64,000 nucleotides of DNA, taken from assembly GCA_965205265.1 (NCBI GenBank), contig CBDBGH010000003.1:5399553-5463552 (forward strand), written 5' to 3'. The translations under genes and the position numbers were made by a program. Each line of letters opens with the position of its first letter. The stretch's first letter is position 1. Shown here piece by piece: positions 9,622 through 59,169 of the stretch. The notes under the pieces were generated by a model, which saw only the letters and a list, made by a program, of their open reading frames with translations, ran no database searches and was not told the DNA's origin. Source of the DNA: Alphaproteobacteria bacterium. GTDB taxonomy: Bacteria > Pseudomonadota > Alphaproteobacteria > Bin95.

Positions 9622-9735
9622 GGGCCGCCGCCTTTCCTGCTGTCGGGAAAGCGGAACATAGGGCAGGTGGAGGCGCAGATTGAAGCACGCGGCGGGCGGG
9701 CGCTATGCTGGCCGGGCGCACGATGCCCGGAGACG

Positions 9736-33911: not shown

Positions 33912-33912
33912 C

Positions 33913-34742: not shown

Positions 34743-35042
34743 GATACGATTTATCATTGTGTAACAGCTATTTGTACCGCCATTTTGGTCTTGCATCCCT
34801 GCCCGGGATGCACTCCAATGCGCCGGGATACGGGTCCGGTCGCTTGCGGATTGATTACGAATTCCGCATCCACTTCCAGGACCGAAAACCCGCCGCGGGA
34901 AAGCGTTCGGTCACGCGGTGATGGAGGGGACGATGGCACAGAGCGAAGTCGGGCGAAGCCCGGCAAACCACGGAGTTGGCCTCGTCGTCCTCATCATCGT
35001 CACCCCTTGAACGAACGCTTCCCCGATCCGCCGGAGACCACG

Positions 35043-36218: not shown

Positions 36219-36236
36219 GGCGAGAGGAAGGTCGCG

Positions 36237-37409: not shown

Positions 37410-37479
37410 CTCGGCGGTATCGCCTCATCTGGACCGGCGGCAGTTGTCCGGGCCACTCACTGCGACCGCCCTGTCCGGT

Positions 37480-42378: not shown

Positions 42379-42504
42379 CGCGGAAACCCGAACCGACAAA
42401 AGTGAAGCGCGGAATGTGCATGCCGGTTCGGAGACCGCCCGCCCGCTGATTGCGGACGAAGGCCGTTGGGCATGGGCCACAGGGTCGGGCAAGGGTGTGG
42501 CATG

Positions 42505-42954
42505 TCAGGTGCGGGCCTCAGCCCAGGGATCGACGGTTTCGACACCGGTGTTGCGGAACTCGCCGGTGTTCCGCGTGACCACGGCAAGCCCGCGCGTGGC
42601 CGCGGCGGCGGCGAGTAAGGCGTCGGGCACGTGATCGTCGAGCGGCTCGCCGCGCCTGCGCTTGTCTTCCATGATCCGCGCGCATGTCCGCGCATCAGCG
42701 AGGGTCCATTCGACGATCCGGTCCTCGAACAACTCGTCCAGAAGATCCTGGAACCGGTCGGCGAGACCGCGCCGGCGTCGGCCCGGATCGAGTCGGCCGA
42801 TGCCATCGAGAACTTCCCAGACGGTGATTGACGCGAGCCCGAGACCTTCCTCTGCAATCGAGTCGAGATAGGTCGCGACCCGAGGCTCGGGCCTCGGGCG
42901 CATCATCTCGGAGACGACGTTCGTGTCTATCAGCCACGCGAGCGGGGCGGTCAT
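42505..42954 (-). CDS. vapC: VapC/PIN-domain toxin
   Basis: LIDTNVVSE, ITVWEV, DALLAA, VVTRNTGEF. Confidence 0.9.
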   Translation of the reverse strand: MTAPLAWLIDTNVVSEMMRPRPEPRVATYLDSIAEEGLGLASITVWEVLDGIGRLDPGRRRRGLADRFQDLLDELFEDRIVEWTLADARTCARIMEDKRRRGEPLDDHVPDALLAAAAATRGLAVVTRNTGEFRNTGVETVDPWAEART

Positions 42955-43208
42955 TCTTCGCCCTCGCCGGAGAACGACAGCGGTTTGTAGCCGCAACGGA
43001 CCGGGGCGGGAAGCTCGACGCCGTGCTCTTCCCCGAAATGACGCGCGAAGGCCTCGGATGGCTTCGGCCGCCGCTCGGTCTTCGCGCGCTTCTCGTGGAT
43101 CAGGCGACGGACCAGCTCTTCCATCGACACGCCGACCTGCCGGGCCTCGCGCCGGAGCCAGGACTTGTCCCCGGGATCGATGTCGCGGACGGTGATGCTG
43201 CTGCCCAT
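42951..43208 (-). CDS. FitA-like ribbon-helix-helix antitoxin
   Basis: SITVRDID...LRREARQVGVSMEELVRRLI; 4-nt overlap with vapC. Confidence 0.85.
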   Translation of the reverse strand: MGSSITVRDIDPGDKSWLRREARQVGVSMEELVRRLIHEKRAKTERRPKPSEAFARHFGEEHGVELPAPVRCGYKPLSFSGEGEE

Positions 43209-43390
43209 GGCGGCGGCTCCTGTTCAGTCGGGAACCGAGAAACGGGCCACCCGACAATCAAATTATGCTATCGGGAAGCGCAGGTCAAAGACTCAAAGAC
43301 TTGCGGTTCCGGCTTGGGAGACACGCCGATGCTGCGGATTTCGTCCGCGGTCCGGCTGATCTTGCGGAACGGGCTGCTGCCGCTGTCACA

Positions 43391-43420
43391 GTCACGCGCA
43401 CATCAGCGCACGTCAGCGCA
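43391..43420 (-). repeat. Three 10-bp-period repeats, inverted relative to the 34714 array
   Basis: GTCACGCGCA CATCAGCGCA CGTCAGCGCA (reverse complement gives TGCGCTGA twice), followed by an AT-rich tract. Confidence 0.5.
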
Positions 43421-43648
43421 TGCCTGTCTTCAACCTGTTGAATTCACTACATTATTGATGTTGCGGTGTGCATGATTTCACCTTAGGTTCTTGTCGGGAA
43501 GCCGCCGGAATGCCGATGGCTCACCGGGGCGACTGCGATCGTTTGGTCTTCCCGGGGCGCCGACGGGTTCCGCTAATGCCGTATCGAGGAGAGCGTATTG
43601 CCGGGAAGCCGCACCCATCGTCGCTCACGCACCGGATGGAGGTCCGTC

Positions 43649-44329
43649 ATCGACCCCGGGCTGTGGCGGCAGGGGTTCGTCGCGGGGACCCTGGGCGCGG
43701 TCTCGATGGCGCTCCTCGCCTGCGCGGCCGCGCTCGCGCGCGACACCAGCGGGCATGACTGGTATGCGGCATACAGGATCACGGTCGCCGACATCCTGAT
43801 CGGCGTCGGCTTCGACGGGGATACGCCGGTCGAGTACCGCAACGCGGACGGCGCGGTCGAGTCCCTGAGCCGTTTCGGCCTGACCCATGGTTTCGAGGCG
43901 CGCTGGGCGCGGAAGGACATTCTGGAGGCGGCCTGGAAGGGGGCGATGCTGGGCGCGCTTTCCGGGTTCGGCGGCGCGCTGCTGTGCCTCGTGCTGGCCT
44001 GGCCGTCCATGTGCGAGCGCCGGGGCCGGCGTCCCGCATACGAGCCGGTGCCCGATCCGCGGAGCGATGCGCCGGACCGGTTAGCATCGGCACCGACGAG
44101 TTCGGTGTTCACGCCGGTTGCGGCGAGACCCGGATTTTCACCGTGTTCAGCGACTGCCGCGCCGGATCGCACGGCCGTACCCGAACCTCCTGACTCTCAG
44201 GGTGCCGAACCTGCGGGCACGAGGCGAAGCGGGCCCGGCTCCGACAAGGACAATAGGGCGGAACCCGACGCGGAGCCCGCGCGCCATGCGCGCCGGAGTC
44301 GCCAGCGCGACTACGGGCGCTGGGTCTGA
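43649..44329 (+). pseudogene. Probable TraD/TrwB coupling-protein N-terminal remnant (no ATPase domain)
   Basis: Two hydrophobic segments and a Pro-rich tail; stop overlaps the relaxase ATG; GGAGG precedes an in-frame ATC rather than ATG. Confidence 0.45.
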
Positions 44330-47280
44330 TGGTTGCCTCGATCGGCGCGGTCGCGAGCCCGTCCCAGGGGGCGCACTACTACGAGGCCGATGGCTACTAC
44401 GCGAAGGACTCCCTCGAACATCGCGCCGCCAGCGCCTGGGCGGGCCGGGGCGCCGAAGCGCTCGGCCTGTCCGGTCCGGTCGATCCCGATGCGTTCAGGG
44501 CGGTGCTGGAGGGTGAGGTGCCGGACGGCTCGGGGAAGCGTCTCGGCCGCCGCATGGGCGAGGACGGGATCGTCCACCGGCCCGGCCGCGACCTGACCTT
44601 CAGCGCGCCGAAGAGTGTCTCCCTCGCGGCTCTGGTCGGCGGCGACGGGCGCATCGTGGATGCCCACGACCGGGCGGTCGGGCGCGCGCTCGACCGGTTC
44701 GAGAGCAACGCCGCCGAGACCCGGGTGCAGGACAGGTCGACCGGCCGCATGGTCCGGGCCGGCGATCAGAGGACGGTGGTCGCCCGGTTCAGGCACGAGA
44801 CTTCCCGGAACCTCGATCCGGCGCTGCACACCCATTCGGTGATCGCCAACATGCTGCTCGGCCCGGACGGGAAATGGCGCACCATGGCGAACGAGAGCCT
44901 GTACGCCTCGAAGATGCTGCTGGGCGCGCTCTACCGCAGCGAGCTTGCGAGGGAACTGACATCGCTCGGCTACGGCATCGAGCGGACCCATGCCGACGGG
45001 CGCTTCGAGATCGCGGGCGTTTCCCGCGAGGTCATCGAAGCGTTCTCGACGCGCCGGGCCGAGATCGAGGCGGCGATGGCGGGCCGGGGCTTCGGGTCGA
45101 CGGCGGAGAACCAGCATGCCGCCCGCCGCGCGGCGCTGATGACGCGGGCGGCGAAGCGCGATGTGGACCGGGAGGCGCTGCGCGAGACCTGGGCCAAGCA
45201 GGCCGCCGAACTCGGCTTCGACGCCGGGGCGCTGGTGGCCGAGGCGGCGGCGCGGAGCCTGGGCGGTGCGGAGAAGGAAGCCGGCGCGGCGAGAGATGCG
45301 GACCTGTTCGAGCACGCGGCGCGGGCGGACCCTGCGAGGGAAGCGGTGGACTGGGCGCTGGCCCATCTCTCGGAGCGCGATGCGGTGTTCGCCAGGACCG
45401 ACCTGCTCGCGGCCGCGCTTGCGTACAACCCCGGCGTGGCCTCCATCGGCGAGATCGAGCGGGCCGTCGCCGGGCTCCGGCGCGAGGGCCGGCTGCACGA
45501 CGCGCCGGCGTTTGAGCAAGGCGGCGGCCTCACCACCGACAGGGCGGTGGCCGACGAGCGCGAGACGATCGCGCTGATGCGCGGCGGCGCGGGCCGGGGC
45601 CGTGCGCCGATGCGCGGCTGGAGGGTGGACCGGCATCTCAGGAAGGGACCGCTCACGGCCGGGCAGCGGGAGGCGGTGAAGCTCATTCTCTCGGAGAAGG
45701 ACCACACGGTCGGGGTGCAGGGGTTCGCCGGGACGGGGAAGACGCGGATGCTGAACCGCGCCCGGGCGCTGGCGGAGAAGAAGGGCTGGCGCATGGCGGG
45801 CCTCGCCCCGTCGGCCTCGGCGGTCCGCACGCTGGCGGCGGAATCGGGCATCGAGAGCGAGACCCTCCAGCGGTTCCTCGCGAGGAACGCCGGCGTCGCC
45901 GAGGGCAGGCTGACGAAGAAGGGCGCGAAGGACATGCGCGCGGCCTTCGCGAGGACCGTGCTGGTGGTCGACGAGGGCTCCCTCGCTTCCACCGTCCAGG
46001 CCCGCGACCTGCTCAGGATCGCCGCCGCCATCCGCATCCCGAAGCTGGTGCTGGTGGGCGATGCGAAGCAGCTCGACGCCGTCGATGCCGGCAAACCGTT
46101 CGCCCAGTTGCAGCAGGCGGGCATGAAGACCGCGGTGATGGACGAGATCCTGCGCCAGCGCGACCCCGGCCTGAAGGCCGCCGTCGAGGCGAGCCTCGCG
46201 GGCGAGATCGCCACGGCGTTCGACAGGCTCGGCTCCCATGTCGCCGAGGTGAAGCCCGACAACATCGCCGGCGCGGTGGCGGCACGGTGGCTCGCGCTCT
46301 CGCCCGAAGAGCGGGAGCGCACCGGGGTGATGGCGCCGAGCCATGAGTTGCGCGAGGGCATCAACGCCCATATCCGCGAACGCCTCGCCCGCGAGGGGCG
46401 CATCGCGGGGCCGGTCCTGCAAACCCGGCGGCTGGTCTCGAAGGACTACACGCACGCGGAGAAGGCGCTCGCCTCCAACTATGCCCCCGGCGACGTGGTC
46501 GCCTTCCACCGTCCCTACAGGCGGCTCGGCGTGGAGAAGGGCGACGAGCGCTGCGTCATGGGCGTCGATCGCAAGGCCCGCGCGGTGCTGCTGGACGACG
46601 GCCACGGCGGCCGGGTCGCCTGGAAGCCGTCGGAGATCGGCGGACGCAAGGGCGGGACCGAGGTCTACCGCGCCGAAACCGTCGAACTGCGCGCCGGCGA
46701 CCGCATCCGCTGGACCCGCAACGACAGAGGATTGGGACTGGTCAACTCCGGCACAGCCGAGGTGATCGGCGTGCGCAACGGGCGGGTGACGTTCCTGCTG
46801 GAGGAGGGGCGCAGGCTCACCCTGACCCCGGGCGATCCCCAGCTGCGCCATCTGGATCATGCCTGGGCCGCGACCGTGCATGCATTCCAGGGCCGCACCG
46901 TCGACAACGTGATCGCGGCGATGGAGGCGAACCACCCCAACCTGACCACCGCCAAGGCGTTCTATGTCGAGATATCCCGCGCCCGCGACCGGGCGGAACT
47001 GGTCACCGACGACGCCCAGGCGCTGAAGGAACGGCTGGAAGCGGTCACCGGCGAGCGCCTCTCGGCCCTCGAAGGCATCGGCGAGAGCCTCCGCCCGGAA
47101 CGCGAACGCGGGCGGGAAAAGGACGGGAAGGCGTCGCTCGACAGAGAGCGGGTGAGTGCCGAGACGTCGTCGCCGCACCCCCCGGTGCGGGATATCGAGC
47201 CGTTTCCGGCAAGGGACAAGGCGCCGGAGCCCGAACCGCCCGCCACGGGCAAGCGGATCGAGATGGACCTCGGGATGTAA
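44329..47280 (+). CDS. MobF (TrwC/TraI-type) relaxase-helicase
   Basis: HYYEADGYY, DLTFSAPKSVS, HETSRNLDPALHTH; helicase GFAGTGKT, VVDEGSL, TVHAFQGRT, YVEISRAR. Confidence 0.95.
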   Translation: MVASIGAVASPSQGAHYYEADGYYAKDSLEHRAASAWAGRGAEALGLSGPVDPDAFRAVLEGEVPDGSGKRLGRRMGEDGIVHRPGRDLTFSAPKSVSLAALVGGDGRIVDAHDRAVGRALDRFESNAAETRVQDRSTGRMVRAGDQRTVVARFRHETSRNLDPALHTHSVIANMLLGPDGKWRTMANESLYASKMLLGALYRSELARELTSLGYGIERTHADGRFEIAGVSREVIEAFSTRRAEIEAAMAGRGFGSTAENQHAARRAALMTRAAKRDVDREALRETWAKQAAELGFDAGALVAEAAARSLGGAEKEAGAARDADLFEHAARADPAREAVDWALAHLSERDAVFARTDLLAAALAYNPGVASIGEIERAVAGLRREGRLHDAPAFEQGGGLTTDRAVADERETIALMRGGAGRGRAPMRGWRVDRHLRKGPLTAGQREAVKLILSEKDHTVGVQGFAGTGKTRMLNRARALAEKKGWRMAGLAPSASAVRTLAAESGIESETLQRFLARNAGVAEGRLTKKGAKDMRAAFARTVLVVDEGSLASTVQARDLLRIAAAIRIPKLVLVGDAKQLDAVDAGKPFAQLQQAGMKTAVMDEILRQRDPGLKAAVEASLAGEIATAFDRLGSHVAEVKPDNIAGAVAARWLALSPEERERTGVMAPSHELREGINAHIRERLAREGRIAGPVLQTRRLVSKDYTHAEKALASNYAPGDVVAFHRPYRRLGVEKGDERCVMGVDRKARAVLLDDGHGGRVAWKPSEIGGRKGGTEVYRAETVELRAGDRIRWTRNDRGLGLVNSGTAEVIGVRNGRVTFLLEEGRRLTLTPGDPQLRHLDHAWAATVHAFQGRTVDNVIAAMEANHPNLTTAKAFYVEISRARDRAELVTDDAQALKERLEAVTGERLSALEGIGESLRPERERGREKDGKASLDRERVSAETSSPHPPVRDIEPFPARDKAPEPEPPATGKRIEMDLGM

Positions 47281-47385
47281 TGTGTGCGGACGGCAGCTCC
47301 TTTGCGGTCGCTTGTCCCGAGGCGCGAAGCACGATGAAGGTCATTTCCTGGAACAGTACCAGCACGCGCTCGCCGAGCCGTAATA

Positions 47386-50300
47386 GCTGTAGTTGCTCTC
47401 CGAAACAGCATTGGCTACAGTCGCGCGAAGCCGCGCCGCACCAGAGCCCGCGCTGTAGTTGCTCTCCGAAACAGCATTGGCTACAGTGAGACGTTCGACA
47501 TCGTCGGGTGCGCTTATGCTGTAGTTGCTCTCCGAAACAGCATTGGCTACAGTACCGAATGCGGCATTGAGACATACGGTTAGGCTGTAGTTGCTCTCCG
47601 AAACAGCATTGGCTACAGTGCAATGGCGAGGCTGCGCGCCAGCATTCCGGCTGTAGTTGCTCTCCGAAACAGCATTGGCTACAGTAAGGATGCGGCACTC
47701 CTGATCGCGGAGGTAGCTGTAGTTGCTCTCCGAAACAGCATTGGCTACAGTCCGGCGCGGACAGCACCCGCTCCGAGACGCGCTGTAGTTGCTCTCCGAA
47801 ACAGCATTGGCTACAGTCAGCTTCCACGAGTGGCACCGCGCCGACAGGCTGTAGTTGCTCTCCGAAACAGCATTGGCTACAGTACCGGCGACAAGTGCGT
47901 AATCGAGTTCAGAGCTGTAGTTGCTCTCCGAAACAGCATTGGCTACAGTGTGAAGACGATCCGGTCGCCTTCTCCAGGGGCTGTAGTTGCTCTCCGAAAC
48001 AGCATTGGCTACAGTCGCAGCACCCGCGAGTACGACGCTGCGCCCGCTGTAGTTGCTCTCCGAAACAGCATTGGCTACAGTACGGGACGGCCGATCTTGC
48101 TCTCCGACGCCGCTGTAGTTGCTCTCCGAAACAGCATTGGCTACAGTTGCACAGGCACACAGGGCAAATGCCGGAAGGCTGTAGTTGCTCTCCGAAACAG
48201 CATTGGCTACAGTGATCGCCGAATCCAAGCCGCCGCCACCGGTGCTGTAGTTGCTCTCCGAAACAGCATTGGCTACAGTTCGCCATTGCCTGCTTGCGCG
48301 TGGGATAGCGCTGTAGTTGCTCTCCGAAACAGCATTGGCTACAGTGTCCACGTCGAGCACCGCATCGCGTAGCCGGCTGTAGTTGCTCTCCGAAACAGCA
48401 TTGGCTACAGTGAACAGCCCGTTGACCGCGCCTGCCGTGACGCTGTAGTTGCTCTCCGAAACAGCATTGGCTACAGTTGGAAGTAGGGGGTTGGCCCGGC
48501 CCGGCATGCTGTAGTTGCTCTCCGAAACAGCATTGGCTACAGTGAACGGCGTGAAACAGATCGACCGATCCCAGCTGTAGTTGCTCTCCGAAACAGCATT
48601 GGCTACAGTCTCGCGGAGGTCGTCCCAAGTCCGGACTTCGCTGTAGTTGCTCTCCGAAACAGCATTGGCTACAGTGAAGTGCTGATGGAGTCGAGCGATG
48701 GCTGAGCTGTAGTTGCTCTCCGAAACAGCATTGGCTACAGTGCGTCGCGGTCTCGATAGGCGGCAGGACGGGCTGTAGTTGCTCTCCGAAACAGCATTGG
48801 CTACAGTCGTTGGCGGTGCATCCGCCAGCTATGGATGGCTGTAGTTGCTCTCCGAAACAGCATTGGCTACAGTCCTGCGGCGAGAGCGGCGAGTGGTTCG
48901 TATGCTGTAGTTGCTCTCCGAAACAGCATTGGCTACAGTCAGCAGACGCCGCGCGGAATCGGTCTCGACGCTGTAGTTGCTCTCCGAAACAGCATTGGCT
49001 ACAGTCCACCACCGGCGGACATCGGCGGCATTCGGGCTGTAGTTGCTCTCCGAAACAGCATTGGCTACAGTCCACCACCGGCGGACATCGGCGGCATTCG
49101 GGCTGTAGTTGCTCTCCGAAACAGCATTGGCTACAGTGCCGGCCGAGGGTGCGCCGACTGTAGGCGTGCTGTAGTTGCTCTCCGAAACAGCATTGGCTAC
49201 AGTTCCCGGTGGCGATGCCTATGTCGGCGGTAGGCTGTAGTTGCTCTCCGAAACAGCATTGGCTACAGTCCGAAGCTTCCGGGCGCGGGACCTTTGACGG
49301 CTGTAGTTGCTCTCCGAAACAGCATTGGCTACAGTCGCCTGGCCGTAGACGTGCGCCGTACCGTAGCTGTAGTTGCTCTCCGAAACAGCATTGGCTACAG
49401 TCAGGCCTCCCGCAACCTCGTACGCCGCTATGCTGTAGTTGCTCTCCGAAACAGCATTGGCTACAGTTATCTCGACCAGCGTGGCGGTCCGGTATATGCT
49501 GTAGTTGCTCTCCGAAACAGCATTGGCTACAGTCATCGACGCCGCGGGCTTGGTAGTGAGTTCGCTGTAGTTGCTCTCCGAAACAGCATTGGCTACAGTG
49601 TCGACAATCTGCTCGAAGGAAGGAACAGCGCTGTAGTTGCTCTCCGAAACAGCATTGGCTACAGTCGCACCGGCATATCCTGACACATGGTACGCGCTGT
49701 AGTTGCTCTCCGAAACAGCATTGGCTACAGTGATGGTCGCGGCAAGGTCCCGGCTCATCGCGCTGTAGTTGCTCTCCGAAACAGCATTGGCTACAGTACC
49801 CGCGCACATCCGTAGACGCGTGCGTTAGCTGTAGTTGCTCTCCGAAACAGCATTGGCTACAGTCGCATCGTCGTGGACAAACGCATTGCCGTAGCTGTAG
49901 TTGCTCTCCGAAACAGCATTGGCTACAGTGCCGTCATCAACGGCGCTTACGTAGGCTTTGCTGTAGTTGCTCTCCGAAACAGCATTGGCTACAGTGTGAA
50001 GATGACCCGGTCGCCTTCTCCAGGGGCTGTAGTTGCTCTCCGAAACAGCATTGGCTACAGTAAAGATGAGGGTAGACCCCAATGCACCCCCGCTGTAGTT
50101 GCTCTCCGAAACAGCATTGGCTACAGTCGCCTGGTCGCAGACCCACGCAGCGTCAAAGCTGTAGTTGCTCTCCGAAACAGCATTGGCTACAGTTGAAGTG
50201 GGAGCGAAGGCGCATCCGCAGTTGCTGTAGTTGCTCTCCGAAACAGCATTGGCTACAGTCGCCAAGCTCATATCGCAGCGTCGAGATATGCTGTAGTTGC

Positions 50301-50589
50301 TCTCCGAAACAGCATTGGCTACAGTATGGTAGCGGCGTTCGGAGAACAGGCATATGCTGTAGTTGCTCTCCGAAACAGCATTGGCTACAGTCTCCTCCGC
50401 GAAGACGACCTGGTCGTCACAGCTGTAGTTGCTCTCCGAAACAGCATTGGCTACAGTCGGGCCGCGTAAGCATGCCGAAAAGAGTTCGCTGTAGTTGCTC
50501 TCCGAAACAGCATTGGCTACAGTCGACGAAGCTAATTGAAGGGCCGTAACCATGCTGTAGTTGCTCTCCGAAACAGCATTGGCTACAGT
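47386..50589 (+). CRISPR. Type II-C CRISPR array: 49 x 36-nt repeats, 48 x 30-nt spacers
   Basis: Repeat GCTGTAGTTGCTCTCCGAAACAGCATTGGCTACAGT at a strict 66-nt period; + orientation inferred from G-U pairing with the tracrRNA. Confidence 0.99.
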
Positions 50590-50596
50590 ACTCCGT

Positions 50597-50627
50597 GCCC
50601 AACCCGTTGAAAATCAACGGGTTGGGC
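50597..50627. terminator. Perfect 14-bp hairpin in the leader between the array and cas2
   Basis: GCCCAACCCGTTGA-AAA-TCAACGGGTTGGGC between convergent transcripts. Confidence 0.55.
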
Positions 50628-50660
50628 CGATTCTTGGCACAGGATTCGCAGCCGGGGCTA

Positions 50661-50993
50661 TCAGAACAGGGCCAATTGGTCGGGCTTTTTCTCCGTTTCG
50701 GCGGGAGCCCGGCCCTCGAAATTGCGCACCATGCCGAATTGCTTGTCGGTGATGAAAATGATCGAGACCTTCCCCATGGGCGGCACGAAGCCGCCGACCC
50801 GGACGGCGGCGGCGTCCGCTTGGGCCCGTGTGAGGAAGTAGCGAGTATAGACCGACCATTGCTTCATCGCGAATCCTTCGTTCAGCAGGCGGTGACGAAA
50901 GCGGGTCGCGTCGCGCCGCTCTTTCGACGTTCCTACGGGCAGGTCGAAACACACCACAAGCCACATCGCCCTGTAACCGGAAACGGCCTCCAT
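50661..50993 (-). CDS. cas2: CRISPR-associated Cas2
   Basis: SGYRAMWLVVCFDLPV, FAMKQWSVYTR, ITDKQFG. Confidence 0.95.
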   Translation of the reverse strand: MEAVSGYRAMWLVVCFDLPVGTSKERRDATRFRHRLLNEGFAMKQWSVYTRYFLTRAQADAAAVRVGGFVPPMGKVSIIFITDKQFGMVRNFEGRAPAETEKKPDQLALF

Positions 50994-51039
50994 CCAAAGG
51001 CCGGCCCGGCCGCGAAAGCGCTGTCGGACCAGCCTGCGC

Positions 51040-51966
51040 TCACGGGCGGTCGGCAAAGTCGAGTTCGGTTTGCGCCACAAGACCCCAGTCGAGCGGCCAT
51101 GACAAATCCGCCGCCTCTCCCGTGCAAAGCTCCGCCAGGGAGTGGGCCAGCATCGACATGACGCGCGAGACGGTGTGCGCTCCCGCCGACGTCGCCATTG
51201 CGCCGTTGACGACCAGCGCCAATTCCCGTTTGGCCGCCGTGTCCACTTCCCCGGTCCAGTGTTCCCGGTTGCGCCAGACTACGTGGTCCACGAGAGGTCG
51301 GAACGGCTCCATCAGGTCGTCCACCAGTTGGAAGGCGTTCAGGCGGCTGCGGTGATGCAAACCCAGCCCGGGCGCCAGGCCCGCTCCGACCACGGCGCGG
51401 GCCATGGCGGAGCGAACGACCGCATAGCCGTAGTTCAAATGGGCGTTGAGACCGTTGCCATTGGGGTCGCGCCGGAAATCGCTACCCATCAACCGCCGCC
51501 AGTAGAAACGCGCGGCGCGGGCTTCCACATTGTCCGGGTCGCCGGATCGCACCGACCTCGCAAGCCTTGCAAGGCGCATGTGGTCGGGCTGTCCCACAAT
51601 CTCCAGCGCCCGCGCCTGCGAGGCGATTTTCGCCATGACCAGCCGCCGCCAAAGCTGCTTGCGCCTGGGCAGGGACAGGGATGCCTGAGCGGTCAGCCGC
51701 GCTGCCTGCTCGAAATTGCCAGACACAGGCAAAGACAAGGCCACAGGCGCATGGTTGCGGCCGCACAGTACAAGGGGAATCCCCGCTTCGGCCAACGCCG
51801 CGCCCAACGACAGGGACAGCATCGCGCTATGGCCGTGCACGAGAACGCACTGGATGTCCGAAAGCGGCACCCGGCCCAATTCGCCGCCGTCGCCGGAAAC
51901 CTTCAGGCTACCCCTCGACAGCGAGAGAACGCGGTTTTCGTCGGCGATATCGACGACGCGCCACAT
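51040..51966 (-). CDS. cas1: Type II CRISPR-associated Cas1
   Basis: GDPDNVEARAARFYW, LNYGYAVVRS, LGLHH, FQLVDDLMEPFRP. Confidence 0.96.
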   Translation of the reverse strand: MWRVVDIADENRVLSLSRGSLKVSGDGGELGRVPLSDIQCVLVHGHSAMLSLSLGAALAEAGIPLVLCGRNHAPVALSLPVSGNFEQAARLTAQASLSLPRRKQLWRRLVMAKIASQARALEIVGQPDHMRLARLARSVRSGDPDNVEARAARFYWRRLMGSDFRRDPNGNGLNAHLNYGYAVVRSAMARAVVGAGLAPGLGLHHRSRLNAFQLVDDLMEPFRPLVDHVVWRNREHWTGEVDTAAKRELALVVNGAMATSAGAHTVSRVMSMLAHSLAELCTGEAADLSWPLDWGLVAQTELDFADRP

Positions 51967-51968
51967 CG

Positions 51969-54900
51969 TCAGTTGAGGCGGGGGCCTCGCCAGCGCACGC
52001 GGCCCGTAGGGTCGCACAGCACCATTGCCGGCGCGCGTTCCGAGAACCCCTTCTTGTTGCTGATCCTTACATGCTTCGGCGGTCTGCCGGAGCGCGCCTC
52101 CTCGACGGGCACAAATTCGAGATCGGGATTATCCAAGCCGGAGAACGAGACCGTGCGGTAGAGGCGGCGCGGCGAGGCTAGGTCCTTCGGGTCGACCGCC
52201 ATTTCCACGAGATCGTTCCTCCGCAGAACGAACAGCCGCCGCCCGCCCTCGCGGCGCCATCGTTCCTGGAACCCCGGCGTATTGGCGTCCAGGGTCGAAA
52301 CAACTTCGATATCCCGGTCCCCTTCGCCATTCACGAAATAGACCAGACGGTCGTTCCCTCTCGTTCGGTTGGCCTGTCTGGGCCTTTTGCCGGGGTCCAA
52401 CGGGCCTTTGAGAACGCGCAGGGAGACAATCTGGACCCGCGTAAAACGGCGGCGTCCGGTTGTTTCCACGATGTACCGCTTTTTCGCCCACTCCGCCCGC
52501 GCCTTTTGCTGGCCTCTGGCCGTGCGCGCGTTTTCCAGAGCCTCGGGTGGCGCTTCCTGCATCAATTCGAGAAGCCTGGCACGCATCTTCTCCAAATCAG
52601 GGGCCAGATTATTGCGCAGGGAAGACACGGGGTCGTGTCCGCCCCACCAGAAGCGCGCGCCCTGCTCCTTCGCTCGCTCGACAGCCCGGATTGCGGTTTC
52701 GGGCACACCGAGCTTCTCGATTTGTTTCACCTCCAATTCCGAAATCGAGACATGGTCCCGGGCGACATATTTGTCCCGCTCGCCCGGGACTTCGCATATA
52801 AGGCCGTAGTTCGTCGCTTCGTGCAGTTGGCCTCGCGGATCGTGATCGGCCTTCACGACCACGGCGGTGGCGGGCGGTTTGTCCGTCGCTTCGGCGGGTC
52901 TCCAGCCTTCCAGAAAAGCCTTTACTGTCCTCCGAAACCCATCCTGCCAACATATGCCAATATTCTCAAAGTTCGGTTCGGTGTAACGAATTTGGGCCAG
53001 AATTTCTCTGGCGCTCTCGTTGCCTGTATCACGCGCCGCCAGCGTCTGGAGGCGCTGCACATCGCTTCGGGTTGTGCAGGCGGCAACGACCGCGTCCAGC
53101 AAGTGGTGCCGATGGTCCCAGCGTACCTTGTCGGCGCGTTTGAGGCGCGCTTGCCTTTCCTCGAGAGTTTCACCGTCTCTGGGGGACAGAATATCGCCGA
53201 TATCAAGCCGTCCTTCCTCCACCATTATGTCTCGGATTACGGTATGGAGGCCCCACAAGTAGCGGAGGTCCGACGTGATTCGACCATTCAGGCTGACGAC
53301 GCCGTTATCCGGGTCTTTGCATACGCAAGACAGATAACGCGCCGCCATTCTTGCAATGTAGCGCGTATCGTTGAGGAACCTGCGTTGGAATTCTTCCCGG
53401 TCCTCGTAACGCTTCATGGCATCCTCTTTGAAACGCCAATACACGCTCCCGCCGCGGAGCTTCGCGCGCTTGAGGATATGCTCATAGTCCTTGCCCTTGT
53501 ATCCACCGCTGAATGCCTCGAAAGGAGGCCTCTTGCGTTTGAATTGATTGGCTTCCTTGAACACTAAAGCCAGATTGGGGATGCCGTCGTCTCCGGTCGT
53601 GGCGTAAGGCAGTATATGGTCGATCTCAACCGACCCGTCGAAAAGGTGCTCCATGCAGATCGGTTCTCCCGTGTACAGGCATTCCCCGCCCTGCATTCTA
53701 TGGAGTCTCATTCGTTTCAGGTCTTCGGGTTTGAGCTTGCGCTTATGGGCGCCCAGAGACTCGATATGCGCTTCGTTCTCCTTACGGTTTTTGAGATTCT
53801 CCTTTTCGGCGTTGTCACGCTCCTCGGCGCTCCTGTTCAGGTCGCGGGCCAGTTCGATGCAGATTTGCGCAGGCTTGCCGTAGAGCTTCAGATAATCGTT
53901 GGCGGTCTTGCGTAGCTGGTTGAGTGCCACATGGACGACCGGATTCGAAATGCGGCCTAGACGGGCTTCGTCGGCGTCTCCGGGCGCACCGCTTCCCCCG
54001 ATGCACCATCCTTGCAGGACTTCCCCGTAGTAGGGCAACCGATCGAGACTTGGCGGTTCCTGATCGAGAGATTCGAGTCCGGCCCGCTGTTCTGCTTTGT
54101 CGTGCGGGATGACCTCTGCTTCCAGTTCAGCCAGCAGCTTCCGGGTCGCCGTCGCACCGGCGGCGGAATGGGCGGCGGGCAGGCGTGCATCCGAAAGCAC
54201 CTGAATGGCGTCCGGCGGCAGGTCGAGCTCTTTCAATTTGGTGTTCAAGATGTCCCGGTCGTCTTCCGTGCGTACAAGACTTGCGATCTTTTCACGCCGC
54301 TCCTCATCGAAACCCCGCCACTGTTCGAGCGCATCCGCCTTGCTCATGGCGGCGGCAAGCGGATGGCCCTTGAGTTCGCCGGCCGTTTTCCTGCCTTTGC
54401 GCCGGATATCCAGACTGGTCATGTCGGCCAGCGCGCCGCGCCTCAAACCCAGCGCTGTGCGCACTCCCGCCGCAGTCAGGTCCTGCCCATCGAGCAACAG
54501 GAAGGCAAGACGGTCGCGCTGCGCCATATCCAAGGGCCGTTCCGCCGCCGTTCGCGACGATATCAGACGCAGATTGTTCACTTCCTCGTAGATGCGCTTG
54601 CGTTGAAACAAGTCGCTGCCGCGCGACAGCCGCGTTTCGATTTCACCATCGGCGCCGCGGACGCCGTAGCGGCATTTGCCGATGGACGGCGCTTTCGGCT
54701 CCGCTTCCTCGAACACCATCTCCCTGAGTTGCTCGCAAGCCATGTCCGTTAGCGCTTCGTGGTAAGGCTGTTGAGTCTCCAGCAGCGCGTCCAGTTCCGC
54801 CTGCATCATGGGGCGAGTGAAGACCGGCATCCCTTCCCGGTCTTTCTTCAGCCGGGTCGTTCTCCTCTTGCCGGCCTTGCGCATTAGCAATTGCGAGGGG

Positions 54901-55421
54901 TGGGCGGGGCCGTCGAGTCCCAGCCTTTCGCCGAGCGCCGCGAGTTCGTTTTTTGTCGTGTTGGCCGTGTGCGCCATGGACTGGCGTTCCCTGGCGCTCT
55001 TTTCCTGTTGCTTGGCGTCGGCCTTGGAGTCGTCCCTGAGCCCCCGTGTCAGGCGCTGGCCCCGGTTCTTCGCGATATGCAGGATGGCGCGGGCCAGATC
55101 GCCGGCTTTCAAGCGGCTCTCAAGGCCCTTCGCCCGCAGCGGGACACGCTCGGTACTGCGTCCCGCAGGGGTGTCGGAGAAGCCGGGACCGAGGTTGAGC
55201 AGGCGAACGAGATACGCGCGCAACGCCTTTACCCGGTCGGCGCGGCGGCCGTATTGCGTCCGCATGGATTTGTGGCGGGTCCGCCCCGCCCCGCCTGTGG
55301 GCGCGGGATAAAAGAGCGCAACGCCGTCGATCAGCCGTGCCGGGCGGTTCGCCGTATCCAGTTCGATGACTGCGAAGCCGAGACTGCCGACGCCGACATC
55401 GATGCCCCATCCGACCTTCAT
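51969..55421 (-). CDS. cas9: Type II-C Cas9, ~1150 aa
   Basis: RuvC-I GIDVGVGSLG, RuvC-II IELARDL, HNH EIDHILP..NLALVFKEANQFK, RuvC-III HRHHLLDAVV; no csn2 or cas4 in the locus. Confidence 0.95.
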   Translation of the reverse strand: MKVGWGIDVGVGSLGFAVIELDTANRPARLIDGVALFYPAPTGGAGRTRHKSMRTQYGRRADRVKALRAYLVRLLNLGPGFSDTPAGRSTERVPLRAKGLESRLKAGDLARAILHIAKNRGQRLTRGLRDDSKADAKQQEKSARERQSMAHTANTTKNELAALGERLGLDGPAHPSQLLMRKAGKRRTTRLKKDREGMPVFTRPMMQAELDALLETQQPYHEALTDMACEQLREMVFEEAEPKAPSIGKCRYGVRGADGEIETRLSRGSDLFQRKRIYEEVNNLRLISSRTAAERPLDMAQRDRLAFLLLDGQDLTAAGVRTALGLRRGALADMTSLDIRRKGRKTAGELKGHPLAAAMSKADALEQWRGFDEERREKIASLVRTEDDRDILNTKLKELDLPPDAIQVLSDARLPAAHSAAGATATRKLLAELEAEVIPHDKAEQRAGLESLDQEPPSLDRLPYYGEVLQGWCIGGSGAPGDADEARLGRISNPVVHVALNQLRKTANDYLKLYGKPAQICIELARDLNRSAEERDNAEKENLKNRKENEAHIESLGAHKRKLKPEDLKRMRLHRMQGGECLYTGEPICMEHLFDGSVEIDHILPYATTGDDGIPNLALVFKEANQFKRKRPPFEAFSGGYKGKDYEHILKRAKLRGGSVYWRFKEDAMKRYEDREEFQRRFLNDTRYIARMAARYLSCVCKDPDNGVVSLNGRITSDLRYLWGLHTVIRDIMVEEGRLDIGDILSPRDGETLEERQARLKRADKVRWDHRHHLLDAVVAACTTRSDVQRLQTLAARDTGNESAREILAQIRYTEPNFENIGICWQDGFRRTVKAFLEGWRPAEATDKPPATAVVVKADHDPRGQLHEATNYGLICEVPGERDKYVARDHVSISELEVKQIEKLGVPETAIRAVERAKEQGARFWWGGHDPVSSLRNNLAPDLEKMRARLLELMQEAPPEALENARTARGQQKARAEWAKKRYIVETTGRRRFTRVQIVSLRVLKGPLDPGKRPRQANRTRGNDRLVYFVNGEGDRDIEVVSTLDANTPGFQERWRREGGRRLFVLRRNDLVEMAVDPKDLASPRRLYRTVSFSGLDNPDLEFVPVEEARSGRPPKHVRISNKKGFSERAPAMVLCDPTGRVRWRGPRLN

Positions 55422-55485
55422 GAAAAGTCCCCGACAGCAAGATTCCGAGAATATGTTGACTTGCGCGCGGGACTGGTGCAAGCAT

Positions 55486-55616
55486 TGGCTGCTGTTTTGG
55501 AGAGCAGCGGCGTAAAGCTGTGCAACTGCTTGCAGTAGCAACTACAGTAAGGCAGCTTTCCATGGAGGGCTGCCAGACGAATATGGGGAGAGACGTTGTC
55601 TCTCCCCTCTCGTTTT
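55486..55616 (+). ncRNA. tracrRNA with split anti-repeat
   Basis: TGCTGTTTTGGAGAG (55490-55504) and AGCAACTACAGT (55537-55548) are complementary to the repeat; then AAGGCAGC..GCTGCC hairpin and GGGGAGAGAC/GTCTCTCCCC hairpin plus TTTT; TTGACT upstream at 55456. Confidence 0.85.
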
Positions 55617-55627
55617 ATCGCCCGTTA

Positions 55628-56108
55628 CTGGAGGAGGGGCGCAGGCTCACCCTGACGCCGGGCGATCCGCAGTTGTGCCATCTGGATCACGCACGGGCCG
55701 CAACCGTGCATGCCTTTCAGGGCCGTACGGTCGACAACGTGATCGCGGCGATGGAAGCGAACCACCCCAACCTGACCACGGCCAAGGCGTTCTATGTCGA
55801 GATATCCCGCGCGCGCCCGGGCGGAGCTGGTCACGGACGACGTGCAGGCGCTGAAGGAGCGGCTGGAAGCGGTCACAGGCGAGCGCATCTCGGCCCTCGA
55901 AGGCATCGGCGAGAGCCTCCGCCCGGAGCGCGAACGCGGGCAGCAAAAGGACGGGAAGGCGTCGCTCGACAGGGAACGGACGAGCCCGGAGGCGTCCGCG
56001 CCGCACCAGCCGGCGCGGGAAATCGAGCCGGTTCCGGCAAGGCACAAGGCGCCGGAGCCCGAGACGCCGGTCCAAGAGAAACGCATCGACATGAACCTCG
56101 GCCTCTGA
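55628..56108 (+). pseudogene. Duplicated 3' end of the MobF relaxase (direct repeat of 46798-47280), frameshifted
   Basis: LEEGRRLTLTPGDPQL...IDMNLGL*; roughly 90% identical by eye; 2-nt deletion near 55817. Confidence 0.92.
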
Positions 56109-56243
56109 TTGCAGCCTTCGGGACCTCCTTTCGGACTTCCCCGGACGCGGTCCGCTCCCGAACATCGATGGAATCTCGTGGCGGACTCGCAATGTCCTTG
56201 TCTCGGGCGGCAGATCGAATGCGCACATCCATCGCCCGGATCT

Positions 56244-56630
56244 TCACGCCGGGCCCTCGCCCATCGTCTCCGTCATGCTCCTGCGGGCGGCGGCGACGAG
56301 GTCGTCGAGCTCTTTCTCGCGTTCGACGTCGAGCATCTCCTCCCGGTCGAGCGTCGCCATCACGTAGACGAGGCGGTAGATCTCCTCGATGAGCGCGGCG
56401 TGGCCCTTCGACAAGGTGGCCGGGGGAAGCTCACCCAGGCGGTCTTCGGCAGCGGCGACCGCGCTCGACCGCACGAGTTCGCCGGGGGACATGCCGTGCC
56501 GCGCGGCGGCCCGCCGGATCAGGTCCCACTCGGAATCGGAGAAGCGGGTCGAGCGCTGCCGGCGCGCATTGCTCCGGTTCTCCGCAGGTTTCTTCCCGGT
56601 CTCGGGATTTTTCCGTTCCTTTCCCGCCAT
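56244..56630 (-). CDS. Ribbon-helix-helix relaxosome accessory protein (MobC/TrwA-like)
   Basis: RSTRFSDSEWDLIRRAAARHGMSPGELVR; adjacent to the relaxase end. Confidence 0.7.
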   Translation of the reverse strand: MAGKERKNPETGKKPAENRSNARRQRSTRFSDSEWDLIRRAAARHGMSPGELVRSSAVAAAEDRLGELPPATLSKGHAALIEEIYRLVYVMATLDREEMLDVEREKELDDLVAAARRSMTETMGEGPA

Positions 56631-57571
56631 CCCTTCTGCCCTTTCCAGATCGAACTGTCCGCCGGCCGCAATGAAATTCCGGCCCTGAAACAGCACGCCG
56701 GCGGCCCGTTTGCGGCCGGGCCCGGTCCGCCCCACAGGGCCGCCGTACCCTTCTTCATCCGCCCCGCCGGCCACCGCTGCCGAACGCCCTGAAGGGCGCC
56801 GCCGCGACCCGGATGCCGGTCCCGGGGGCGTGTTGTTTCCGTGTTTCGAGAGCCTGCACGGCGAACACACGGTCACGCGCCCTGGCGCAAATCGCAACCA
56901 CCCTGACTGCTTTTGGCGGCAGGTGCGCGCTGGACTGCGCCCCGGTACGACGATCCGGCGAACACAAATCGGTGGCGCTCGATCCGCGTTGCGCCGGCAG
57001 GATTCTGGCGGCGCCTGTCCACTCCTGGCGGTGCCAGGCAGCGCCTGTCATCCCATGCCGCAACCCGCAGGGGACCTGCGTTCCGGTGTGTGGACCGAGA
57101 CGGGCGCGGGCCCGTCTGAGCACGATTTGCGATGTATGAGCGATGGGGGAATCGGCGCCGGCGAATACGGCGGCTCGGAGCCTCCGCGGCGCCTGATGCG
57201 GGCGGCGGTGGCGACACCACGGAGGGACGAAGTGTCGAGCGCGGCGCCGGGGGCGGTGCCGGCGGTTCCGACGGGAGCGCCGTCACGAGGATCGGCGGGA
57301 GTGCGGGGAGCGATGCAGGCGACAGCGCGCGATGGCGGCGACAGCCGCAAGGCGCTGCTGCCTTGGCCGGCGATCGGGCTGGCGGTCGCCAGCACCGACG
57401 GCGCTGCCGGAGATGCCGATCACGGTGTCGATCGCGAGCGGGGCCCCCGATCGTGGTCCGGGGCAGGGCGAAGCGCCCGTGCGGATGGCGTTGCCGCGCG
57501 AAGTGTGTGCGCAAGAAGAAGCGGACCGCGCCGCCGCCGGAGCGACGGTGCGGCCCGCGCTGCGGTGCGGC

Positions 57572-58504
57572 CTATGCACTGGCCGTCATCACGGGGATAC
57601 CGAGCTGCCTTGCCTTGTCCACGAGGTTCTCTGTGATGCCGGAGCCGGGGAAGGCGATGACGCCCCTGGGCAGGAGGTTGAGCAATTCGTCGTTGCGGCG
57701 GAAGGGCGCGGCGCGTCCGTGGCGGTCCCAGTCGGGCTTGCAGACGATCTGGTGGACGCCGTTGCGTTCGGCCCAGCGCGCGGCGATCCTCTCGACGCCG
57801 GGTCCGCCGCCGTGGACGAGCACCATATCCGCATGCTTAGCGCGGGTCCTGTCGAGCATGCGGATCACCGCGTCGGGGTTGGCGATGTCCTTGCCGCCTG
57901 CGATGGCGACGAGGGTGCCTTGCGGCAGGTGCGCCGTGGTCTCAGCCTCCTTGCGGGCGCGGATGAAGTCGCGGGCGTCGATGGCGGCGCTGGTCAGCCT
58001 GCCGGTCTGGCTGACGTGGCTGCCGCGCCGGGGCCGCCAGGTGTCGCCGGTCTCGGCGCGGTACTGTTCGGCCACCGCATCGCGCAGGGTCTCGAAGGCG
58101 TCGCGTCGGTCTCCGAGGTTCTGCGCGCGGTGGGTGACGAGTTCGAGTTCGCGGGACCTGATCTCGGTTCCGTCCTGGTCGCGCTGGAGGTCGCGGAGTT
58201 CGGGGGTGAGCCGATCGACGCTGCGGTCGATGCGCTGCGTCTGGGCGTGAAGCATGTTGACGAAGCCCCAGAGCAGGTGTTCGCGCTCGTCGGCGAGCTG
58301 TGTGCCGTCGGGGCAGACGCCTTCGCCGAGGATGCGGAAGGCTTCCTCGACGGCGGTCAGCGCATCGTCCTTGTCCCAGATGACGCGGGGGTCGAACTCG
58401 TCGCGCTCGGGTGTTGCGCTGTAGAGGGCGGCGTTGTCGCAGACGGTCGCGGTGACGGACTGTCCGTCGCTCTCGACGGTGTCGATGTTTTCGATGAGGG
58501 TCAT
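57572..58504 (-). CDS. DUF2493 (SLOG-like) domain protein
   Basis: AIAGGKD, LVHGG, AARWA, AAPFRRND, IAFPGSGITENL; RBS AAGGAG. Confidence 0.85.
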   Translation of the reverse strand: MTLIENIDTVESDGQSVTATVCDNAALYSATPERDEFDPRVIWDKDDALTAVEEAFRILGEGVCPDGTQLADEREHLLWGFVNMLHAQTQRIDRSVDRLTPELRDLQRDQDGTEIRSRELELVTHRAQNLGDRRDAFETLRDAVAEQYRAETGDTWRPRRGSHVSQTGRLTSAAIDARDFIRARKEAETTAHLPQGTLVAIAGGKDIANPDAVIRMLDRTRAKHADMVLVHGGGPGVERIAARWAERNGVHQIVCKPDWDRHGRAAPFRRNDELLNLLPRGVIAFPGSGITENLVDKARQLGIPVMTASA

Positions 58505-58941
58505 GACGATCTCCTTGACGATCGGGTTGCAGCGCTCGGGGCGGTGTGCCCCGAAGTGATGTCCTGTTGGGTCACGCGCGCGCAGCGGAAGCACCGGGTC
58601 CGGAATGAATGGCCCGGCGGGATGCGCGGGTGGTGCGGGCGCACAAGCGAGCGAAGCGAGCGCGGAGCCACGGTCGCGCATTCCGCCGGGCCTAGGCGCT
58701 TCAGCGCCGTTTCATTCCGAGTCCCGGCCGGAACGGAGCGTGAGCGGAGTGGAGGACCCCGCCGCAGGCGGGGTTGGTGCAGTGAGCCCGTGTGGCACAA
58801 TGGGACAGCACGCAGACAGGCAAATTCTCTCCCCTTGCACGGACCCGATGGGCGCTGCTGCCCGGCACGGCCTGCGGGAGCATCCCCGGGCCTGTCGGCC
58901 TGCCTTGCAAGCGGAGCGCGCAATTTGACAGCCATGGCCGG

Positions 58942-59169
58942 TCATCTCCGGAACGGATGCGAGAGGATCCGCTGCTCGGTTGCCTCGCGGATGCGGTTGC
59001 GGTCATGGACGCGGTGGGGGCCGCGCGGATCCTCGTCGAGATGGATCACGAAATACCGCGCGCCCTCGCGCAGCGGATCGTCGAGCGCGTAGATGTCGCC
59101 GACATGGTCGCCGTCGCAGTAGATGCGGGATTCGTCCGGGGCGATACGGCGGAAGGCGATGTTGCTCAT
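58942..59169 (-). CDS. Hypothetical protein, 75 aa
   Basis: MSNIAFRRIAPDESRIY...; GGAGG RBS; 4-nt overlap with the upstream gene. Confidence 0.6.
   Translation of the reverse strand: MSNIAFRRIAPDESRIYCDGDHVGDIYALDDPLREGARYFVIHLDEDPRGPHRVHDRNRIREATEQRILSHPFRR

Follow-up and report, generated by a model that had tools for sequence, protein, structure and literature searches.

Mobile elements that carry their own CRISPR-Cas systems (clustered regularly interspaced short palindromic repeats with their associated proteins) are already known. To our knowledge, how complete CRISPR-Cas systems reach mobile elements and move between them is mostly unknown. Here we describe a 64,000-nucleotide (nt) stretch of DNA from an Alphaproteobacteria bacterium (GCA_965205265.1, contig CBDBGH010000003.1, positions 5,399,553-5,463,552), referred to here as the window, in which a complete CRISPR-Cas9 cassette lies behind the gene of a TrwC/MobF-type relaxase, with a diverged copy of that gene's 3' end on each side. 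Coordinates without a prefix are window positions; G000 denotes the source genome, so that the window is G000:C3:5399553-5463552, and G003-G015 denote other genomes of the genus. A comparable system, as portrayed in PMC8743540, is CampyICE1, a Campylobacter integrative and conjugative element (ICE) with its own type II-C Cas9, arrays, and trans-activating CRISPR RNA (tracrRNA), whose authors consider that the Cas9 was perhaps co-opted from a chromosomal system. The likeness is that of a chromosomally integrated mobile element carrying a type II-C Cas9 system. The account given there presents CampyICE1 as having neither cas1 nor cas2 and as having three short scattered arrays, most of whose spacers match competing plasmids (PMC8743540). 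In contrast, the window unit is complete and compact (cas9-cas1-cas2, 48 spacers, and a tracrRNA candidate), lies behind a relaxase gene, and is bracketed by a duplication, and no target was found for its spacers in the plasmid, phage, genus-genome, and sibling-locus searches described below.

Hotspots with variable defense cargo have been described in SXT and in other ICEs and islands (bioRxiv 10.1101/2020.12.16.423150; PMC10201445). As in the SXT-type hotspots of those reports, a fixed intergenic region holds different defense genes, here a Cas9 cassette of one lineage (type A), a Cas9 cassette of another (type B), a GajB-like helicase, or nothing. The site differs from the hotspots described there in lying just behind the relaxase gene and in having one occupant with a long, diverged duplication of the neighboring gene's end. 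No description of a relaxase-end duplication around hotspot cargo was found in the literature searched, supplementary files lying outside the search. Judged from sequence, a complete and compact Cas9 unit behind a relaxase, two unrelated Cas9 lineages at that place in sibling elements, and a long, diverged relaxase-end duplication appear to form an unusual combination.

Islands driven by integrases, such as those in tRNA and guaA genes, encode a tyrosine or serine recombinase, are flanked by short near-identical att repeats, and restore the 3' end of their target gene. The locus resembles such islands in that the gene is intact and a second copy of its 3' end lies on the other side of the insert. 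Unlike them, it has repeats that are approximately 480 base pairs (bp) long and 88% identical rather than short and near-identical, and the resident copy forms the end of the working gene. Since only cas9, cas1, and cas2 lie between the repeats, the locus does not have the site-specific recombinase of an integrase-type island. No non-cas open reading frame (ORF) with coding-like composition or a Pfam match was found in 47281-55627, and no recombinase or transposase was found there. In Campbell-type integration, the insert is flanked by direct repeats that are reciprocal hybrids, and no site-specific recombinase is needed. Here too the insert is flanked by direct repeats of its target, one contiguous with each flank. 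The locus differs from Campbell-type integration and from homology-facilitated illegitimate recombination in that its apparent exchange point is at the very limit of the homologous stretch.

We found that the two copies of the relaxase end are identical in 426 of 484 columns of a global alignment. Two ungapped blocks make up the repeat (46798-46986 versus 55628-55816, 92% identical; 46971-47270 versus 55799-56098, 85% identical), and since their offsets are 8830 and then 8828, the downstream copy carries a 2-nt deletion, in agreement with the alignment. Identical runs of 29, 26, 23, 31, 40, and 28 nt are shared between the copies, and the megablast E-value of 1.7e-163 excludes chance similarity. 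Starting at codon 824, the downstream copy stays in frame for 64 residues, of which 62 are identical, then passes through the frameshift and keeps the orthologous stop codon; it also has a W-to-R change in the conserved HLDHAW motif. The frameshift and the W-to-R change, the sole clear signs of decay, indicate that the downstream fragment is decaying and not maintained. The cassette end is linked to codon 824 by a joint without homology, and the 19-mer across this joint occurs once in the window. These results bear out, in every point checked, the anatomy given by an earlier interpretation made from the letters alone (the sequence-only reading): a complete array-cas2-cas1-cas9-tracrRNA block without integrase or transposase (the tracrRNA being a prediction) inside an imperfect direct repeat of approximately 480 bp, an upstream copy that completes an intact relaxase, and a downstream copy with a 2-nt frameshift that starts approximately 12 nt past the tracrRNA terminator.

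The relaxase has an N-terminal TrwC domain (13-295, 1.5e-83) fused to a superfamily 1 helicase (AAA_30, 442-637; UvrD_C_2, 844-891), which is the arrangement that defines MobF/TrwC relaxases. Its closest relative is the allele of a sibling element in the same genome (G000:C3:3423205-3426210, 91-93% amino acid identity), referred to here as S3 and used as the reference for comparisons of synonymous divergence (dS). Against plasmids, a DNA search with the relaxase region returned no match, and the protein search returned only relatives below 50% identity.

We found that the two copies differ in the manner of coding sequences. Differences at codon positions 1, 2, and 3 number 15, 10, and 33, respectively. 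In the conserved first 60 codons, the ratio of nonsynonymous to synonymous divergence (dN/dS) is 0.05 with a dS of 0.33, and the tail has a dN/dS of 0.38, the same level as that between the working gene and the S3 allele (0.43). This pattern of purifying selection indicates that the copies diverged as working genes and come from two functional relaxase alleles; it excludes a recent in-place copy that has merely decayed, and it excludes an assembly duplicate. S3 also provides the empty allele on which the sequence-only reading had made its proposal depend, since there the relaxase stop codon is followed directly by the homologue of window position 56109 onward.

Relative to S3, dS is 0.25-0.30 in relaxase codons 0-560, 0.11 in codons 560-823, and 0.15-0.17 in the upstream copy, rises to 0.37-0.41 in the downstream fragment, falls to 0.157 in the next gene, which encodes a ribbon-helix-helix (RHH) protein, and ranges from 0.22 to 0.43 in genes further out. 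The 55 nt past the stop codon of the fragment match S3 at 47 positions. Together, the dS profile and the flank match indicate that the downstream fragment is foreign to the S3-like sequence on either side of it. Up to gene position 2938, the sites that distinguish the copies comprise 44 at which S3 has the upstream state, 7 at which it has the downstream state, and 3 at which it has neither; past position 2938 the corresponding counts are 0, 3, and 1 (Fisher p = 0.005). The working gene ends in GM before its stop codon and S3 ends in GL, such that the working gene departs from the S3-like lineage in its last two codons, and the fragment joins that lineage at the same place. The sequence-only reading had the cassette supply a replacement 3' end for the relaxase, and our data reverse this: the upstream copy is of one lineage with the remainder of the relaxase gene and with the genes past the cassette, and at most approximately 7 nt would have come from the module.

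We propose, with a probability of about one in two, that a single Campbell-type reciprocal crossover between relaxase 3' ends brought in both the fragment and the cassette, a non-replicating circle being the simplest vehicle. The incoming DNA would have been a circle holding the last 160 codons of another element's relaxase with the cassette behind them. One reciprocal, RecA-type recombination would have joined this circle to the 3' end of the resident relaxase, with the exchange point in the last two codons. An exchange at that point would leave the resident gene intact with only approximately 7 nt of new end, and the imported relaxase piece would have been left behind the tracrRNA as the fragment that is now decaying. 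The circular intermediate, the RecA-type recombination, and the direction of events are inferred. One crossover, with a circular incoming order of codons 824-983, trailer, and cassette, explains both lineage switches together. The single-crossover entry suggested by the sequence-only reading is supported by a lineage pattern that fits one reciprocal crossover and is weakened by the small number of informative sites and by the possibility that conversion mimics the pattern.

Several points weigh against a single crossover. The lineage switch rests on 4 informative sites past position 2938, and the dS values of the fragment derive from 60 and 95 codons. Co-resident relaxases exchange sequence, as seen in a 60-codon block (codons 570-630) that is 100% identical, and two conversion tracts, one per flank and each ending where homology runs out, could look like a reciprocal crossover. 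The exchange would have occurred in a 7-nt identical patch at the end of the homology even though identical runs of 29-40 nt lie elsewhere. No donor element with the allele of the fragment was found. Neither a circle nor an empty-site joint was present in the contigs of 4 public runs; since contigs drop rare forms, the absence of an excision joint is uninformative either way. The left junction, from the relaxase stop codon to the array, is seen solely in the two versions of the region in this assembly. These two versions may be two loci, two haplotypes, or assembly redundancy; both halves of the window are duplicated elsewhere in the assembly, and one of them includes lepA, a single-copy gene.

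Explanations by chimera formation or by conversion rank below the single crossover since at least two events with a common endpoint are required for each. A chimera, which we consider unlikely, would have arisen by one non-homologous join of the relaxase and cassette of one element to codon 824 of a second element, without a circle, through unequal exchange or deletion between tandem or co-resident elements, and later conversion would have made the RHH side sibling-like. This route has a single non-homologous joint to explain, the genome contains at least nine TrwC-type relaxase loci with mosaic exchange among them, and there are related elements in which the relaxase stop codon, 34-38 nt, and an array follow one another with no duplication. 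It does not account for the difference in lineage, relative to the sibling, between the fragment (dS 0.37-0.41) and the sequence that follows it (RHH gene, 0.157; 47 of 55 nt), nor for the last 7 nt of the upstream copy, which also depart from the sibling. The lineage mismatch between fragment and flank and the 7-nt switch upstream mean that a chimera needs two extra exchanges at the same position.

It is also conceivable, and in our judgment improbable, that the relaxase end was duplicated in place when the cassette was inserted and that siblings without the cassette later converted the upstream copy and the RHH side, so that nothing but the fragment still preserves the original allele. The identical block at codons 570-630 shows that co-resident relaxases undergo conversion, sibling similarity falls off in both directions from the 3' half of the relaxase and the RHH gene, and conversion tracts from an empty allele must end at the cassette edges. 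An in-place duplication nevertheless requires two tracts of independent origin with a shared homologous endpoint, the right-hand one stopping approximately 10 nt into 480 bp of 86-88% homology, as well as a mechanism for duplicating 480 bp of target in one step; we know of no such mechanism for a cassette without a transposase.

We next turned to what lies behind the relaxase in related elements. Eight sibling loci were fetched, with relaxases 76-93% identical in protein. Behind the relaxase of S3 there is nothing. In G011:C1, an array of 10 repeats begins 38 nt past the stop codon and is followed by cas2, cas1, and cas9, in the same order and orientation as in the window, and then by the RHH gene; G010:C3 has the same cassette type between a different, co-directional RHH gene and a SLOG gene. 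G015:C1 has a gene on the opposite strand for a 1006-amino-acid UvrD helicase with zinc ribbons, whose best PADLOC match is GajB. The remaining loci are G003:C703, with about 0.86 kilobases (kb) behind the relaxase, G011:C4, whose ORFs have no Pfam or PADLOC match and include no RHH or SLOG homologue, and G005:C100 and G003:C194, whose contigs end too soon behind the relaxase. Overall, across the eight loci the cargo is a different Cas9 cassette in two, a GajB-like helicase in one, and nothing in one. Judged from this gene content, the region behind the relaxase is a defense-cargo hotspot with interchangeable cargo in this element family.

The Cas9 proteins of G011 and G010 (type B) are 26% identical to the window Cas9 (type A), and their repeats differ from those of the window. 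Both types also occur away from a relaxase, type A in G009, in a Rhodospirillaceae metagenome-assembled genome, and in metagenome contigs, and type B elsewhere in the source genome, in G015, and in G012, which indicates that two unrelated Cas9 systems ended up behind the relaxase. The type B locus elsewhere in the source genome (G000:C3:5127392-5130460) is a second cas9-cas1-cas2 locus with 11 repeats and no relaxase near, and approximately 2 kb is inserted between its cas9 and cas1; in the type B locus of G012, cas9 is split by approximately 1.6 kb. Between G011:C1 and G010:C3, dS is 0.27-0.32 for the cas genes and 0.76 for the relaxases (1.0 for the last 160 codons), and the block of high identity is limited by the terminal repeat and by a point 166 nt upstream of the cas9 start. 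Since the cas genes are less diverged than the relaxases, either cassettes move as tight units or flanks are replaced around cassettes.

These comparisons bear on whether the cassette is a dedicated, swappable module that docks repeatedly through its own relaxase-3' arm, leaves as an 8.8-kb circle, and moves from element to element, as the sequence-only reading had suggested. The geometry permits this, with direct repeats that share identical runs of up to 40 nt; the cargo behind the relaxase varies among siblings; and the two type B cassettes, which occupy slightly different intergenic slots, have cas genes far less diverged than their relaxases. On the other side, no second relaxase piece lies beside the cargo in any of the eight sibling loci, both Cas9-bearing ones included (tblastn; repeat scan of three), and 141 matches to a 160-residue query in 17 genomes of the genus, inspected by eye, yielded no other relaxase 3' duplication that flanks cargo. 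Apart from the versions of this element, the same-strand relaxase pairs within 10 kb were, by eye, a gene split by a frameshift and a gene split by an IS110-family insertion sequence (IS). Five loci with relatives of the window cas9 (four distinct, since two metagenome loci are identical) have no relaxase in flanks of up to 10-15 kb, and the fragment itself is decaying. We therefore give a dedicated module little credence: the variable cargo stands, and recurrent docking is not supported by any of the sibling loci. The data do not show a recurrent, excisable docking module.

The window is the final 64 kb of the 5.46-Mb contig C3 of a genome with a stated contamination of 7.28%. Positions 8030-32587, which include lepA, are repeated at C3:36590-61081 with 99.95-99.99% identity, and positions 32876-64000 are repeated in reverse at C3:3804820-3774960; both duplicated halves are at least 99.7% identical to their second copies, the array excepted. 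An IS1595-type copy lies at the meeting point of the two duplicated segments, and the end of the duplication is also the end of the contig. The second version of the cassette region (C3:3774960-3804820) has the same relaxase-end duplication. In public data, the right junction, from cassette to fragment, is present in 6 runs from 3 studies, and contigs from all 4 runs compared (3 studies) bridge 55627/55628; two of these contigs, 1380 nt and 5258 nt long, show 0 differences. In one of the runs the cas genes are the same as here and most of the array is not covered by contigs, which indicates that the strain there has other spacers; the same run has a contig resembling the empty allele, with 47070-47273 (10 differences), 95 other letters, and then 56236-56356. 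On the concern of misassembly raised by the sequence-only reading, the right junction is secured by these bridging contigs, and the left junction has no independent confirmation. A mis-join as the source of the duplication or of the cassette's position is very improbable, since contigs from 3 studies bridge the cassette-fragment junction, the copies are 12% diverged with a coding pattern, and both assembly versions share the structure. In favor of a mis-join, the window, at the end of its contig, consists of two segments that are duplicated elsewhere and meet at an IS copy, and truncated repeats occur in part of the second array version.

Table 1. Features of the relaxase gene, the cassette, and the adjoining gene (window positions).
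Feature	Positions	Strand	Evidence
TrwC/MobF-type relaxase-helicase, intact, 983 amino acids	44329..47280	+	Pfam TrwC, AAA_30, UvrD_C_2
Upstream repeat copy, codons 824-983 of the working relaxase	46798..47280	+	Alignment
Spacer between relaxase stop codon and terminal CRISPR repeat, 105 nt	47281..47385		
CRISPR array, 49 identical 36-nt repeats and 48 spacers of 30 nt	47386..50589	+	Repeat scan
cas2	50661..51080	-	Pfam CRISPR_Cas2, 5e-14
cas1	51040..52017	-	Pfam Cas_Cas1, 4.6e-29
cas9, type II-C-like, ~1150 amino acids	51969..55421	-	Pfam RuvC_III, HNH_4, Cas9_a; PADLOC Cas9, 7.6e-74
Predicted tracrRNA (anti-repeat, two 3' hairpins, T-run)	55471..55613	+	Duplex and fold
Joint without homology, cassette end to relaxase codon 824, 11 nt	55617..55627		Alignments
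Downstream repeat copy, relaxase 3' pseudogene fragment	55628..56108	+	Alignment; 2-nt deletion near 55810
Small convergent gene, weak NikA-like ribbon-helix-helix match	56244..56897	-	GC content at third codon positions; Pfam 2.2e-4, below curated cut-off

The unit between the repeat copies is 8.35 kb long and comprises the array, cas2, cas1, cas9, and the tracrRNA candidate (Table 1). By its domain and gene content, a Cas9 with RuvC and HNH domains together with cas1 and cas2, it is a type II-C system; there is no room or ORF in the unit for csn2 or cas4, for which no dedicated search was made. The ATG of cas9 at 55421 opens the sequence MKVGWGIDVG, with the N-terminal GIDVG motif. The CRISPR RNA sense is probably the + strand, as the best duplex between repeat and tracrRNA candidate pairs + with + (-41 kcal/mol, versus -24 to -33 for the alternatives). 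The 72-nt tail of the predicted tracrRNA folds at -40.6 kcal/mol and ends in a hairpin and T-run at approximately 55613, and a scan of 47000-56500 against Rfam matched no family. The 3' part of the predicted tracrRNA, from anti-repeat to terminator, can be aligned with the chromosomal cassette of G009. Homology to that cassette extends from the terminator end (55616) to the array and no further, stopping 11 nt before the fragment, which indicates that the cassette is a tight unit. The 105-nt stretch between the relaxase stop codon and the array is possibly a decayed array trailer; it has no homology to the flank of the G009 cassette. We rejected the first 60 nt past the upstream stop codon as a homologue of the sibling intergenic region, since the alignment, while plausible, was at chance level (35/61, versus 31 +/- 2.5 in shuffles).

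We compared the two array versions, that of the window and that at G000:C3:3788371-3790310. Common to both are spacers 1-3, next to the relaxase, and a central block of 16; 7 and 4 private spacers, respectively, lie at the cas2 end, which fits uptake at the cas2 end after the versions split and suggests ongoing acquisition. On this comparison of arrays, the type II-C unit is apparently active. Spacers 9 and 40 agree at all but 2 of 30 positions, which indicates that the same target was sampled twice; array spacers 25 and 26 are identical. Along 150 nt of the second version, repeats are truncated and parts of window spacers 4, 22, 23, and 25 occur, a pattern that a sequence error or a genuine rearrangement may explain.

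Upstream of the S3 relaxase is a type I CRISPR-Cas locus (G000:C3:3404001-3424000) with an array of at least 34 repeats and genes for a RAMP protein, a Cas4-Cas1 fusion, Cas2, an IS630-like transposase, and Cas3. Spacers of the Cas9 system had seemed to be aimed at this sibling element, and we rejected that interpretation since the matches at C3:3410504 and C3:3411754 fall inside the type I array, where one spacer of the second version (28/30) and one of the window (22/23) match type I spacers. These overlaps between the Cas9 and type I arrays indicate that two unrelated CRISPR systems sampled the same target. Searches for spacer targets gave no plasmid match and only chance-level phage matches (E = 1); none was found in 16 genomes of the genus, where the whole-array query is probably insensitive to 30-nt matches, and the fetched sibling loci held nothing convincing.

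The first gene beyond the insertion is the convergent RHH gene, which is 91% identical in amino acids to that of the sibling element. Beyond the cassette, the RHH gene, a SLOG/YspA-family gene, a DUF4326 gene, and a gene for a single-stranded DNA-binding protein all lie on the - strand, such that the relaxase and the RHH gene converge with the cassette between them. Two + strand ORFs (56389-56688 and 57332-59092) were rejected as downstream genes, being on the wrong strand by composition and Pfam. Upstream of the relaxase, 34911-43257 encodes an 816-residue ORF without a family match, a 1670-residue Type ISP (IIG-like) restriction-modification enzyme, and a PIN/RHH toxin-antitoxin pair. Given these genes here and the type I CRISPR-Cas locus upstream of the S3 relaxase, defense genes lie on both sides of the relaxase in this family. 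The IS1595 copy at 32946-34707 carries a D12 adenine methyltransferase, and contig C3 contains over 60 near-identical copies of the 1.9-kb IS at 735-2651, which has a DDE_Tnp_1 transposase.

Just upstream of the relaxase, a 243-residue ORF (43598-44329) has no family match. Homologues with 32-65% identity occupy the same position in the 6 sibling loci that have upstream sequence, and the ORF has just a 64-residue, 36% match to the coupling protein found at this position in siblings further removed, which would make it perhaps a remnant or a replacement. No coupling protein was found by this relaxase, T4SS-DNA_transf matches adjoining three other relaxases in the genome, and the CagE/TrbE/VirB family (VirB4-type ATPase) has no match anywhere in the genome. 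With no coupling protein next to the relaxase and no VirB4-family match, the element is not shown to be an ICE, and it may be mobilizable or degraded.

We also examined the junctions for motifs and for recurrent breakage. No hairpin motif shared between 43200-44400 and 56100-57700 was found that would link the junction to TrwC recombination at an origin of transfer (oriT); the oriT sequence of the family is not known. In G010:C2 (L036, G010:C2:3226000-3245900, approximately 8848-10618), an IS110-family insertion follows residue 825 of a relaxase that is 58% identical, within 2 codons of the window breakpoint position, and no relative of this IS was found in the source genome. Relaxase relics that sit among transposases or unrelated genes begin at residue 822 (G003:C615) or begin matching near 836-837 (G012:C3 and G005:C208). 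Relaxase residues of approximately 822-825 may be a fragile or targeted site; the positions are suggestive, but no link to the cassette was found, and we rejected a breakage hotspot there as an explanation.

The locus keeps a readable scar of one CRISPR-Cas capture, with two relaxase ends, a tight cassette boundary, and an empty allele in the same genome. A broader proposal, which we hold to be distinctly unlikely, is that the relaxase 3' end serves as a recombinase-free landing pad, from which cassettes would leave with a piece of the gene, enter other elements by host homologous recombination, and later lose the leftover. If that were true, two unrelated Cas9 lineages would have been traded between competing elements at one address. 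If the route is not common, the locus is a well-documented single recombination event in a defense-cargo hotspot; a common route would make relaxase genes into sites at which immunity modules are exchanged.

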